NCBI GenBank assembly: GCA_963758495.1
Contig: CAVWVI010000003.1
Span: forward strand, 480,001 to 544,000
From: Oligoflexia bacterium
GTDB lineage: Bacteria; Bdellovibrionota; UBA1018
Length of the DNA stretch: 64,000 nt
Reading direction: 5' to 3'
Under the pieces are notes generated by a model. That model did no database searches, was not told where the DNA came from, and was given only the letters and a program-made list of their open reading frames with translations. Shown here in pieces: positions 51,624 through 64,000 of the stretch. The stretch's first letter is position 1. Each line of letters opens with the position of its first letter. The translations under genes and the position numbers were made by a program.

Positions 51624-52403
51624 ATGTTGAATAGAGGTATCTCTGCAGCAATTGCAGTAACTTGTCTTATGTCAGCTCAGACCGCCCGAGCTGAGAGTTT
51701 TTACTATCATGGCAGCACTATTGATGTGGCACCTCTCGCCGGTTCAGAGTGGGCTATCGCCCACAAGGGGCAGCTTCCGTATGAGAAGTGCTTCATCACT
51801 GCTCCCGACGGTTTAAATACTGATCGGACTGACGTTCTGGTTTATGGAGTATCTCACCTTCAAAGAACCGAAGACGAAGACAAGGCACCTCGCCTCGTTT
51901 GTTACTCTAGGACTTTGAAATTGGGATTTATGCTTCCCATCGGTCTGGACTCAACTGACCATGCAGGCCTACTAGCGCACATCATGATGGGAGAAGAAGT
52001 AAATGATAGCATGAGCGTCTCCAAATTGGACGGAAAGACTGTTTCAATGCTCTTTGGCAACTATAAAGGTTTTGAAGCCTCCCTTTCCGCGCTTTTCGGG
52101 TTCAGTGGCCAGATTATGACTAACCCTTACGGTGTAAAAATCAAAAATGCGCAGGGTCTCGCGTTTGCCATTGGTGTTTCGGCAGGATACGTTCAAACCA
52201 GCATCCTCAGACGAACCCACTATTACTCTATCGATGGTTCGAATCTACTCATGTTGGTTAATGGGACTGAACTTCCTCGAACAATGACGGATTGGTACAC
52301 GAGAGTAGAACATACCCATCCAAATGATCCTGTTCGCTTTCATATCGACACCACCGTGGATTATTCAAACTTGGATGACCTTCGATTCGTTAAAATTAAA
52401 TAA
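51624..52403 (+). CDS. Secreted hypothetical protein
   Basis: GGGG SD; signal peptide ending ARA; Gly-rich beta-hairpin segment (GNYKG...NPYGVKI...GVSAG). Confidence 0.7.
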   Translation: MLNRGISAAIAVTCLMSAQTARAESFYYHGSTIDVAPLAGSEWAIAHKGQLPYEKCFITAPDGLNTDRTDVLVYGVSHLQRTEDEDKAPRLVCYSRTLKLGFMLPIGLDSTDHAGLLAHIMMGEEVNDSMSVSKLDGKTVSMLFGNYKGFEASLSALFGFSGQIMTNPYGVKIKNAQGLAFAIGVSAGYVQTSILRRTHYYSIDGSNLLMLVNGTELPRTMTDWYTRVEHTHPNDPVRFHIDTTVDYSNLDDLRFVKIK

Positions 52404-52458: not shown

Positions 52459-52496
52459 TCATGAGTGTTTTATACCTTGATATACAACACTCATGA
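52459..52496. terminator. Inverted repeat between convergent genes
   Basis: TCATGAGTGTT ... AACACTCATGA, 11-bp perfect arms. Confidence 0.6.
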
Positions 52497-52532
52497 TTCT
52501 ATTAAAAATACGGAGTAATCGAACCGTCCTTA

Positions 52533-54155
52533 CTAGTGGAATATGAGCCGCACCCCAACGTGCGCGTAGCAGTTCGAAGGAACAACGTGGTCGCGAGACC
52601 CAGACCGCAGAAACCTCGCCTTATACGCAAAGGAACCGCCGCGGAGGACGCGACGCGGACCCCTATCGTAAAGATCGCTTGTCCAAGTATACACGTTCCC
52701 CCGAGCATCATAGATCCCTGCAATCGGTCGCTTCGATCTTACCTTCTGCACCTGACTTCCATCATACACTGCATAATTACCCAGCTCCCTCTCAGGAAAG
52801 GGATAAGGTCCAGCATGAATTTGTTTGTCAGCCCCAAGACGAGCCAGGTATTCCGCCTCGGCACTGCTGATCAACCTCGGGATTAACCTATTTCCGTTCA
52901 ATTTACTTTTTAGCTTTTCTACAAATGCATCCGCCTCATATGCAGTAATTCCGTTGGCGGGCAAATCCATCTCGCTTTCATCCCAGTTCTTAATCTTATA
53001 ACATCCTTGCAGCGCCGGTTTTCTACCCATGACCGCCATCCACTGACGCCGTGTAATATGCGTATCCATCGACTTAAATGAACCCACTGTCACTCTGTGT
53101 GGATACTCTTCCCAATTATATCGACCGGCTTCGCCTGCTGGTGTTCCCATATCGAACGTTCCACCGGGAAGCGCAACAGCATTGAGCCCCGCAATCCCTC
53201 CTATATTCTCGATCCTTCCTTCTACGACTCCTCCTGACGACGGTGTCTCCGCAACTACCTCCCCAGGAAGAGGAACTCGGGAAATCCCCCCAGCACTGGA
53301 ATCCAACCAATGAAACTCTTCAATCGCATTCAAGATGATATGATAACTACCCGAGGGCAACGCGGTCCTACAGAAAGGACATCTTTGATCCCTTGCAGAT
53401 CCCTCTTTTAAACATTTTTCACAAAAATCTTGGCCACAGCACGGCGTTGTCGCTGAATTGCCCGTATGCATGTTCCCATCGATAAGAACACTCTCCCCTA
53501 CAGTGCCCGGAGTCTCCAAACAAATCTTACAACTGGAGTCCATCGTCCGATAGGCAGATGCCTGATGATCCCACCGAGAATGTCCTTCCACTTCATGGGT
53601 GGTATCCAGTGCATCTCCCCAAGGAAAAAACTGATGCACTCGCGTAAGCTGATTCTTCAAGTTTGGCTGCTTAAATAAGCTCGCATTTCTACTTTCCTGA
53701 GCCAGCATTGCCGAGTCAAACTGAGGCGAATTGAGGATTCGCGCCATCACGTCTTTTCGATTATTTTGGGCCGCCAGAATAAAAGGGGTGGCCTGCCTTC
53801 CCTCATACTTAAGAGACACATCCAACTTAGCCCCCTTGTTCATGAGAAGCGCCACAATGTCGGCATTCCCTTTGGCCGCCGCCAGTCCCAACGGAAACCA
53901 CCCGTCCGAGCGCTTCTCGTTCAGATTGATCTTCGACATTTTTTCCGAATTCTCTAGAATCACCTTCGCGTGTTCGACCGTCTGTGCCTGTTCCTGCTCA
54001 GAACCTTGGCCTAGTTGGGTCAGGACAGTCATCAATTCTTCGTACTCCGGCCCCACCACTGCCTGCGCAGAAGTGCTCAATAGAAGTCCCAACACGAAGA
54101 TCCAGTTCTGGGCCCTGAAAGATTTGTGTTCGAATCGCATCAAGAAACGCGCCAT
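52533..54155 (-). CDS. Secreted ankyrin + RING finger + FGE-sulfatase (C-type lectin fold) protein
   Basis: Signal peptide ending AQA; ankyrins (PLGLAAAKGNADIVALLMNKGA, TPFILAA); RING CKIC...PCCGQDFCEKC...CPFCR; GGTFDMG...GNVYTW...RVLRGGSF...GVRL. Confidence 0.85.
   Translation of the reverse strand: MARFLMRFEHKSFRAQNWIFVLGLLLSTSAQAVVGPEYEELMTVLTQLGQGSEQEQAQTVEHAKVILENSEKMSKINLNEKRSDGWFPLGLAAAKGNADIVALLMNKGAKLDVSLKYEGRQATPFILAAQNNRKDVMARILNSPQFDSAMLAQESRNASLFKQPNLKNQLTRVHQFFPWGDALDTTHEVEGHSRWDHQASAYRTMDSSCKICLETPGTVGESVLIDGNMHTGNSATTPCCGQDFCEKCLKEGSARDQRCPFCRTALPSGSYHIILNAIEEFHWLDSSAGGISRVPLPGEVVAETPSSGGVVEGRIENIGGIAGLNAVALPGGTFDMGTPAGEAGRYNWEEYPHRVTVGSFKSMDTHITRRQWMAVMGRKPALQGCYKIKNWDESEMDLPANGITAYEADAFVEKLKSKLNGNRLIPRLISSAEAEYLARLGADKQIHAGPYPFPERELGNYAVYDGSQVQKVRSKRPIAGIYDARGNVYTWTSDLYDRGPRRVLRGGSFAYKARFLRSGSRDHVVPSNCYAHVGVRLIFH
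52545..52655 (-). other. Candidate DGR variable region (VR)
   Basis: 111 nt with only 10 A on the coding strand; no codon ends in A; the scaffold codons are A-free. Confidence 0.55.
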
Positions 54156-54176: not shown

Positions 54177-54203
54177 TCATCGGCGATCCATTGAATTTCT
54201 TGA
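54177..54203 (-). promoter_or_regulatory. sigma28 promoter of the ankyrin-RING-CLec gene
   Basis: TCAA-N15-GCCGATGA, then SD AAGGGGAG and ATG. Confidence 0.75.
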
Positions 54204-63105: not shown

Positions 63106-64000
63106 TCAGTTTTGAACTAGATCCAAAATCCTCTTGAGCTCTTTCAGTCTCTCCGTTTTGGATCGATTTTTTATTCTCTCCCAGTCTCGGTAACTGATTC
63201 GTATGACCTTCCAGCCTTCATCACGAAGAATGAAATCAAGCATTTGATCTTGGGCACTCAAGATCTCCTGGCCATTTCTTAGTTGAAAGTGATGCGGACC
63301 ATCAAATTGAATAATTAACTTGGAAGAAGGTACTGCAAAATCAACGTGAGTTGCAGTACTTTCAATCCAATACTCTTCCCGCAAGTCTTGAGGATAAAAA
63401 ACTCGAATATCTTTACCGATGGCCTTCTGAGCATTAGATATTCTAACTCCTTGAGCCTTAAATCGAGAAGAGGCCTCTTCCAAGCGACGAATGATCGGAG
63501 AAGGCATAAGAATTTTGAATCTTGCAAATAAAACTCCCCTAGCTAAAGAAAGCTGATGAAGCTCTATAAGATTAAAATCCCCAATTATCTTTAGGGCCCT
63601 TTTTTTCCAGGCTTCTAAGTAATGCTCTGTAGGCTGAACACCTAAAACTGAAAATGCATAAATTGAATTAGAAAGCCCCTGAGATTTAAAATTTTCAATG
63701 AAATAAATAGCCCTATTCTGCCATACCGCTAAGAAGTGATCTTCAGGATGAATTCCTAATACTGAAAATGCATAGAGTGAGTTAGAAAGCTCCTGAGACT
63801 TAAAGCTTTCAATAGAATGGATTGCCTGCGTCTGCCAGACCTCTATGAAGTGATCTGTAGGATGAATTCCTAATCCTGAAAATGCATAGAGTGAGTTAGA
63901 AAGGCCCTGAGATGTAAAGCTTTTAATTAAATCAATCGCCTGACTCTGCCAAGCCGCTAAAAAATCATCTGTGGGATGAATTCCTAATCCTGAAAATGCA
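63106..64000 (-). CDS. 38-aa helical-repeat (OPR-like) protein with C-terminal RAP domain (partial)
   Basis: One open frame from 63999 to 63106; repeat FKSQELSNSLYAFSVLGIHPEDHFLAVWQNRAIYFIEN; RAP motif VDF...QFDGPHHF...GWKVIRISYRDW. Confidence 0.85.
   Translation of the reverse strand, partial: AFSGLGIHPTDDFLAAWQSQAIDLIKSFTSQGLSNSLYAFSGLGIHPTDHFIEVWQTQAIHSIESFKSQELSNSLYAFSVLGIHPEDHFLAVWQNRAIYFIENFKSQGLSNSIYAFSVLGVQPTEHYLEAWKKRALKIIGDFNLIELHQLSLARGVLFARFKILMPSPIIRRLEEASSRFKAQGVRISNAQKAIGKDIRVFYPQDLREEYWIESTATHVDFAVPSSKLIIQFDGPHHFQLRNGQEILSAQDQMLDFILRDEGWKVIRISYRDWERIKNRSKTERLKELKRILDLVQN
63570..64000 (-). repeat. 114-bp tandem coding repeats (about 4 units visible)
   Basis: GATGAATTCCTAAT recurs at 63747, 63861 and 63975 (period 114). 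Confidence 0.92.

Follow-up and report, generated by a model that had tools for sequence, protein, structure and literature searches.

A signal-peptide RING protein with a retroelement-type variable C-type lectin end, a candidate E3 ligase effector from an Oligoflexia bacterium

The gene described here lies on the minus strand of a 64,000-nucleotide stretch (the window: contig CAVWVI010000003.1, positions 480,001 to 544,000, of assembly GCA_963758495.1) from an Oligoflexia bacterium of the Bdellovibrionota, whose genome, hereafter G000, is assembled to 3.66 Mb in 5 contigs and is 92% complete. Judged from its sequence, the 540-residue product, P0001, is best read as a RING-type E3 module fused to a variable C-type lectin (CLec) targeting module, a reading that the evidence below supports. 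To the wider proposal, that P0001 would be an exported, eukaryote-directed E3 ligase whose CLec tip has been written by the mutagenesis of a diversity-generating retroelement (DGR) and whose CLec cassettes are shuffled between cargos, we give about even chances. The host would in that case most likely be a protist. The gene and its features are as follows.

54177..54203, minus: sigma28 (FliA)-type promoter, 48 nt before the P0001 start, kept in a second copy of the gene
52533..54155, minus: open reading frame (ORF) of 540 aa (P0001), predicted as signal peptide, ankyrin/helical region, C4C4 RING, linker and TvpA-like CLec
54060..54155, minus: Sec-type signal peptide, residues 1-32, by inspection and a home-made heuristic
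53631..54059, minus: helical region, residues 33-175, with two ankyrin repeats (Pfam Ank_2 at 53733-53936), from Pfam and AlphaFold2 (AF2)
53367..53531, minus: RING, C-x2-C-x26-C-C-G-Q-x2-C-x2-C-x10-C-x2-C-R, with RBBP6-like spacing and a long first loop
53193..53303, minus: Gly/Pro-rich linker whose 3' end is the domain-swap junction (similarity to the protein P0002 starts at about residues 321-325)
52536..53192, minus: FGE-sulfatase-like CLec domain, from Pfam and a structure match to TvpA
52560..52628, minus: variable tip, residues 510-532, whose codons bear the signature of a DGR variable region
52459..52497, no strand: inverted repeat between the P0001 gene and the convergent gene at 51624-52403

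An initial annotation, made from the letters alone, had described a signal peptide, two ankyrin repeats, a RING-like finger, a Gly-rich linker and a terminal FGE-sulfatase domain, and all five were recovered at the places given above. By inspection, the N-terminus shows a basic n-region, WIFVLGLLLS and A-Q-A. Pfam placed Ank_2 at residues 74-141 (E 1e-7), in a part of the protein (31-170) that AF2 models as helical with pLDDT 60-90, and FGE-sulfatase at residues 326-538 (E 1e-21); the linker (residues 285-321) holds 8 Gly in 37. Pfam detected all three domain types, the RING at residues 209-265 by models scoring only E 0.002-0.03, under their curated cut-offs. The full-length AF2 model has a mean pLDDT of 44, and its CLec part is unusable because the input alignment mixed CLec families. 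The gene is GC-rich, as annotated (GC 0.509, the 98.6th percentile of 2282 genome ORFs). A near-duplicate at C2:113049-114671 shares 98% DNA identity with it from the promoter through the stop. In the mature part the two copies differ by 10 synonymous and 4 non-synonymous codon changes (pN/pS 0.12, p 1.6e-4), indicating that purifying selection acts on the P0001 gene. Next to the second copy, on the side of its stop, lies an AbiEi/AbiEii toxin-antitoxin pair (C2:114795-116215).

The RING segment contains eight cysteines (C209, C212, C239, C240, C245, C248, C259 and C262), predicted zinc ligands in an RBBP6-like cross-brace spacing, with Q242 at the usual His position and R263 after the last Cys. 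The Cys beside the Gln site had been annotated as spare. In an alignment of 20 RINGs from G000 and relatives, the Cys-Cys (CC) rows carry Gln or Ala at the His position (3/3) whereas all others carry a single Cys and His (17/17), and since the two forms alternate in this way we read the second Cys as a zinc ligand: the "spare" residue is most likely the fourth ligand of a C4C4 RING. The protein P0003 provides a fourth CC-G-Q case. The CC-type rows are kin, hence one event, and it is the second Cys, not the Gln, that persists. P0001 and three CC-type relatives share the eight Cys, the Pro-hydrophobic pair, the loop-1 Ile (Val in one of the relatives) and the Arg that follows the last Cys. We take the E2-contact residues of RINGs to be a loop-1 Ile, a helix Trp, a Pro-hydrophobic pair and a linchpin Arg; at the corresponding putative positions P0001 has I211, L249, P260, F261 and R263, with Gly at the Trp position.

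The initial annotation had named failure of this segment to fold as a RING as one outcome that would count against it. AF2, Foldseek and the structure comparison VIA all give a RING/U-box fold at moderate scores, and the P0001 segment is on these models predicted to fold as a RING. The AF2 model, built on an alignment of RING paralogues, has a mean pLDDT of 72.7, with 80-90 over most of the core. The matches listed by Foldseek were RING/U-box ligases or their complexes, the best being RNF125 (rmsd 1.4 A over 61 columns, E 0.004), and VIA ranked the Prp19 U-box first (Z 7.8), with RNF4 at 7.2 and RBBP6 (3ztg) at 5.2. The RING family profile matched the RNF4 RING with E 1e-15; an Atlas comparison reached 0.80 at best and is a lead only. 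As given in the available text of PMC1360078, the RBBP6-type pattern is C-x2-C-x11-C-C-x-[NS]-x2-C-x2-C-x12-C-x2-C, a C4C4/C3NC4 RING with the same CC/non-His spacing, from which P0001 differs by a first loop of 26 rather than 11 residues and, with the other CC rows, by Gln/Ala rather than Asn/Ser. The His-type paralogues in G000 suggest that the CC form arose independently of RBBP6.

Among solved structures, the DGR target TvpA (2y3c; E 7e-14) comes closest to the C-terminal domain. From about residue 321 onward, P0001 is 76% identical to the CLec of P0002, a Sel1 protein, and the comparison of these two genes agrees with the annotated variable end: 11/24 codons differ in the tip versus 31/183 outside (p 0.002). 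Changed codons end in a pyrimidine in both genes in 10/11 cases in the tip versus 9/31 outside (p 8e-4). As a map we used the template of a whole DGR found in a relative (G076), which serves only this purpose for the P0001/P0002 tip. All 11 tip differences fall on the 13 adenine codons among the 31 of that template (p 9e-7), and base differences occur at 15/26 template adenines versus 6/67 other positions (p 2e-6). Six of seven gene-disjoint paralogue pairs, hand-picked from 25 listed, have a ratio of changes at codon positions 1 and 2 to those at position 3 of 3.3-10.7 in the tip versus 0.8-1.4 outside (pooled p 3e-13). For the most closely related Lcl pair, pyrimidine third bases are kept in 21/22 changed codons and third-position changes number 3/30 in the tip versus 16/85 outside. 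According to the accessible part of PMC5758913, DGR templates are rich in AAC, with variation at codon positions 1-2. These comparisons indicate that the tip variation of P0001 carries a footprint of DGR type. As template and reverse transcriptase (RT) were searched for in the assembly and not found, P0001 is not classed as a current DGR target.

Relatives do carry DGRs on these same domains. Among 116 genomes of the order, the Lcl-type CLec profile matched in 49, with 7-19 copies in seven of them, and the accessory protein Avd was found in 18. Template/variable-repeat pairs whose mismatches are almost adenine-only exist in relatives for all three CLec families (by family: G075, G059, G049, G058, G001 and G064; G076 and G025; G027). 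The RT gene of the Lcl-type DGRs is encoded on the strand opposite to that of target, Avd and template. In G059, which belongs to the same bacterial family as G000, the cis target, an IBR-bearing E3-CLec gene 75% identical to an RBR-Lcl effector, is followed by a complete DGR (Avd, template and RT); this target differs from the template at 14/38 adenines versus 3/82 other bases. Seven G059 genes at remote loci, an Ank-RING-Lcl and two RBR-Lcl genes among them, differ at 17-29 of about 38 adenines and 9-20 of about 82 other bases. Two of them keep the 3' motif of the cis target, and one RBR-CLec gene carries the template's own 3' flank. Farther afield, 40 Lcl-type representatives scanned from the best 150 matches of a 1.8-billion-protein search included 8 with IBR, 2 with ankyrins and 1 with astacin. 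No relatives of P0001 were found in metagenome or viral contigs, RT was absent from 9 metagenome loci with RBR-Lcl genes, and when homologues were sought with the Ank-RING-Lcl alignment, ankyrin proteins crowded out other matches. Sequencing runs yielded a single contig of 151 nt and no read set that spans the gene.

Within G000 we counted 18 RING ORFs, 20 Lcl_C-like ORFs, 10 FGE-like ORFs and 10 ORFs, some of them fragments, of a third CLec family. About 39 ORFs are CLec-tipped; one FGE-like ORF of the ten, without signal peptide and housekeeping-looking, was left out, presumably resembling an EgtB-type housekeeping enzyme. A CLec end is present on 7/18 RING ORFs. In the 22 proteins scanned, the cargos before the CLec are RING, Ank-RING, IBR-bearing RBR, F-box-like (two weak matches, E 3e-4 and 4e-3), Sel1, phosphoesterase and long unmatched regions. 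The N-terminus of the third family has no Pfam or PDB match and is BTB-like by Atlas (0.86) only, a lead. A crude signal-peptide rule is passed by 37/51 family ORFs versus 818/3062 genome ORFs. An Ank-RING of the P0001 type carries an Lcl_C end in P0003 (46% identity), in L002 and L019, and in G008 and G059. Taken with the shared CLec of P0002, this makes P0001, as far as its sequence goes, a chimera produced by the swapping of CLec cassettes between cargos. The one named relative of the CLec, in a metagenome-assembled genome of the Bdellovibrionota, is 32% identical.

Several members of the family have features of their own. L021 (C1:146136-148730) combines a signal peptide with WWE, RING, Deltex C-terminal, RWD and PARP domains, and this Deltex/PARP-like ligase could possibly couple ADP-ribosylation with ubiquitination. 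Three ankyrin-RBR genes (L032-L034) each have BTB-like-CLec genes from the third family (L187, L189, L190) immediately after them, and these are possible ligase and adaptor pairs. In a compact RBR-like family (alignment A7: L124, L052, L055, L013, L015), RING1 is joined to a single IBR/Rcat-like module whose GCNAAxC loop is invariant, always ahead of an Lcl CLec. Proteins of the form signal peptide, hexapeptide beta-helix and RING occur in G000 and are expanded in G071, G072, G101 and G059. A conserved cargo of 650-800 aa on Lcl CLecs (L001, L006, L012, L020, L100, L130, L140) has no Pfam/NCBIfam match, and close paralogues in this group show the clearest DGR-type tips. The P0002 stop abuts an apparent insertion-sequence transposase, and broken or truncated family members are found at C2:121211/121707, C1:220222 and C3:740975.

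No E2 was found in G000 by a search that did detect one in G043, and no ubiquitin was found in G000 either, in a search for which no positive control matched (E1 not searched), from which it follows that the ligases would need eukaryotic machinery. An own bacterial ubiquitin system was considered and rejected on the same results. The RING profile matched in 10/116 genomes of the order, G043 among them; E2 is present in none of the RING-bearing family-level genomes and in 1/116 overall. That one is on G043:C4, where a eukaryote-type E2 (with L211, L153 and L161 on this contig) occurs with signal-less RINGs, and the contig is probably of a giant virus binned into a bacterial genome. G000 has the type II secretion system (T2SS) genes GspC, D, E, F, a pseudopilin, K and L, as well as type IVa pili and two Tad-type secretin loci.

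The annotated sigma28 promoter proved plausible. The motif TAAAG-N14-NCCGATR occurs 16 times in the genome versus 4-8 times at seven other spacings, and one site precedes flagellin. With a matrix built without it, the site upstream of P0001 ranked 9 among 3217 upstream regions; its -35 box is imperfect, and a looser sigma28 pattern shows no spacing enrichment. A sigma70 scan gave 2 sites versus 3.5 expected. In Bdellovibrio, sigma28-type promoters drive attack-phase genes, as stated in the consulted text of PMC3627812. Near-perfect sites also stand before two further CLec-family genes (C4:134327 and C4:966681) and are absent before most members.

Put in order, the proposed mechanism would run as follows. 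Transcription from the observed sigma28 motif would place synthesis in a swimming stage, and Sec export would then be completed by the T2SS, whose genes are present, or by vesicles. The C4C4 RING, modelled as such, would bind two Zn and a host E2~ubiquitin. The variable surface of the C-terminal CLec would pick the substrate, with the ankyrin region as a second, constant contact. The tip surface would have been written by DGR adenine mutagenesis, for which there is the footprint in P0001 and the DGR in relatives, and CLec cassettes, one swap of which is observed, would be recombined between cargos.

A number of observations weigh against this account. Adenine-tolerant scans of 12 and of 30 gene ends found no template repeat in the 92%-complete assembly, nor did a search of AAY-dense windows. 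No Avd was found, and no DGR RT was found among five RT matches, the three scanned being group II intron RTs and the other two being apparent copies by length, or unscanned; DGR RT queries match these RTs at 22-27% only. An active DGR in G000 was rejected on these searches, and the DGR may have been lost, be unassembled or be ancestral. In relatives, the other cis targets listed lack a RING, most being signal-peptide proteins. The cis target of G059 is, in this assembly, truncated where its contig begins and broken in frame between its E3 part and its CLec, and the remote G059 genes, with their 9-20 non-adenine mismatches, are out of step with the present template. The G058 template matches only its own cis target (12/13 loci unmatched), and 3/11 loci are unmatched in G059. 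Some of the most divergent paralogue pairs left out of the seven show little signal, the F-box pair has no codon-position signature, and double-base changes are not significantly enriched (4/10 versus 5/30, p 0.19). The positions of template adenines coincide with the binding surface, and selection acting on point mutations would therefore fall on the same codons. On the RING side, besides the Pfam scores under cut-off, the paralogue alignment leans the AF2 model to a RING fold, no Foldseek E reached 0.001 or below, no VIA Z reached 8, the first loop has 26 residues, and Gly stands where Trp usually does. Eleven of the 18 RING ORFs have no CLec end, and non-E3 cargo bears CLecs too. Finally, searches of G000 found no VirB4, no VipB of the type VI secretion system and no second FlhA/SctV (Dot/Icm not searched), and no ATP/ADP translocase (TLC), which elsewhere gave weak partial matches in 13/116 genomes; these searches thus revealed neither an injection device nor a hint of energy parasitism, and the eight RING Cys would have to survive the periplasm. 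For Sec/T2SS export of an E3 we found no precedent in the available text of PMC13728172.

The strongest competitor, to which we assign roughly one chance in four, keeps the effector and changes the role of its end: the CLec would be an address tag for a host surface glycan, receptor or membrane, the ankyrins or the RING region would pick the substrate, and DGR variation would track host range. The same CLec types do stand on Sel1 repeats, a phosphoesterase, unmatched domains of about 650 aa and an astacin protease, CLec-only exported proteins exist, and the failure to find VirB4, VipB or a second FlhA/SctV counts for it. A parallel is provided by Legionella Lcl, a T2SS substrate that, in the text of PMC11162425 at hand, binds host glycans via its DUF1566 domain. 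Our choice of the CLec as substrate picker comes from its being the only recognisable binding domain in the F-box-like-, BTB-like- and RING-CLec proteins, and from its position, which is that of the LRR/TPR substrate domains in the chlamydial F-box/BTB/RING effectors (PMC4209131, in the portion available). The RING ORFs without a CLec argue in the same direction, as the CLec is not needed for export.

A second competitor concerns only the origin of the tip, and we consider it improbable, at about half the weight of the first: the E3 effector would be the same, its tip having diverged by point mutation under positive selection and gene conversion, with pyrimidine codons inherited from an old captured DGR target. 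The failure to find a DGR in the G000 assembly and the lack of double-base enrichment agree with it, as do the third-position divergence of P0001 and P0002, equal in the tip (4/24) and outside (34/183), and the identical tips of the two near-identical P0001 copies. Against it stand the complete DGRs that members of the same bacterial family carry on these CLec families, one such DGR lying beside an E3-CLec gene, the template's own 3' flank in one G059 RBR-CLec gene, and the closest Lcl pair, whose third positions change less in the tip than outside while pyrimidines are kept.

Still less probable, and a poor prospect in our estimate, is a RING acting as a non-catalytic mimic (an E2 sponge, a dimer partner or a structural zinc/disulphide module) on a surface adhesin, perhaps directed against grazing protists. 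An atypical RING below Pfam cut-offs and without the Trp, Sec export into an oxidising periplasm and the missing ATP/ADP translocase as a marker of host dependence would suit it, but the contact residues conserved with the eight Cys in CC-type relatives do not, and the canonical RINGs, the RBRs with their invariant GCNAAxC loop and the Deltex/PARP-like protein of the same genome or family suggest working ubiquitin chemistry. A catalytically active C-terminal domain of the formylglycine-generating or EgtB/PvdO type can be practically dismissed despite its Pfam FGE-sulfatase score, as its best structure match is TvpA, NCBIfam PvdO, EgtB and SenA score 49, 29 and 26 versus cut-offs of 500, 360 and 420, and the domain has only two distant Cys while FGE catalysis relies on a Cys pair.

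Two other features of the window border on the subject. The inverted repeat at 52459-52497 is probably a terminator common to the P0001 gene and its convergent neighbour (51624-52403, plus strand), which encodes 259 aa with a signal-like N-terminus and no Pfam/NCBIfam match. At 63106-63999 (minus strand), running off the window, a RAP-domain protein with FAST-like repeats is another eukaryote-type protein.

The DGR targets described so far are adhesins, phage fibres and sensors of bacteria; for bacterial E3 effectors, substrate choice has been described as the work of repeat domains. Set against known systems, each half of the E3-CLec fusion is of a known kind and only their union appears new. 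As far as the available texts go, the DGR targets TvpA (2y3c), CLec1-3 (PMC5758913) and the cyanobacterial FGS fusions (PMC7159879) likewise have a C-terminal CLec with its last 25 or so codons variable, the changes lying on template adenines at codon positions 1-2; they also share remote targets and diverse partners that always precede the CLec. Unlike them, G000 partners are eukaryote-type E3 modules with signal peptides, and no RT, Avd or template was found in the genome; PMC7159879, in the part seen, reports FGS domains behind many partners and, separately, prokaryotic RING systems, and describes no RING-FGS fusion. The NEX1/PEX1 F-box/BTB/RING/U-box effectors of Parachlamydiaceae (PMC4209131, in part) resemble the family in their N-terminal ligase module and C-terminal binding region, their expansion, their birth-and-death evolution and their being read as protist-associated, but they use LRR/TPR and type III secretion where the G000 family has a single CLec with a DGR-type tip, Sec signals and RBR ligases and belongs to a Bdellovibrionota lineage. 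Legionella Lcl (DUF1566/Lcl_C), according to the same partial source as above, is T2SS-exported and ends in a CLec-like domain belonging to the family found at the tips of the sister proteins; it is a collagen-stalked trimeric adhesin without ligase, and the P0001 CLec is FGE-type, not Lcl-type. For Chromulinavorax, the accessible text of PMC6561590 proposes that many signal-peptide ankyrin proteins act on a protist host without a needle, with vesicles suggested; that organism is a reduced obligate parasite, and the same text has no RING-CLec fusions or DGR link. A literature search, with subscription journals outside its coverage, gave no paper that links DGRs to E3 effectors or reports Bdellovibrionota rich in E3s. 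The words "ubiquitin" and "ankyrin" are absent from the main text of PMC5758913, PMC8144416, PMC11661182 and bioRxiv 2023.09.22.558884 (supplementary target tables outside the search).

We tentatively propose, at somewhat less than even chances, a Bdellovibrionota lineage turned against eukaryotic cells, in which a DGR hypermutates CLec cassettes that are then joined by recombination to RING, RBR, F-box and BTB modules; the exported fusions would serve as antibody-like substrate receptors, delivering selected host proteins to the ubiquitin system of the host. If true, it would provide the first case of a DGR that generates the specificity of intracellular effectors directed at a eukaryote, along with evidence that Bdellovibrionota attack eukaryotes. 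Kin of predators that feed on bacteria are thereby flagged as partners or enemies of eukaryotes, and the question is raised of how Sec-exported zinc-finger ligases could enter the cytosol of a host with no needle. Should CLec tips select the substrates for ubiquitination, the ligand of a cellular DGR target would become testable, since the ligase marks its own ligand, and the bacterium may vary which host proteins are marked for destruction.

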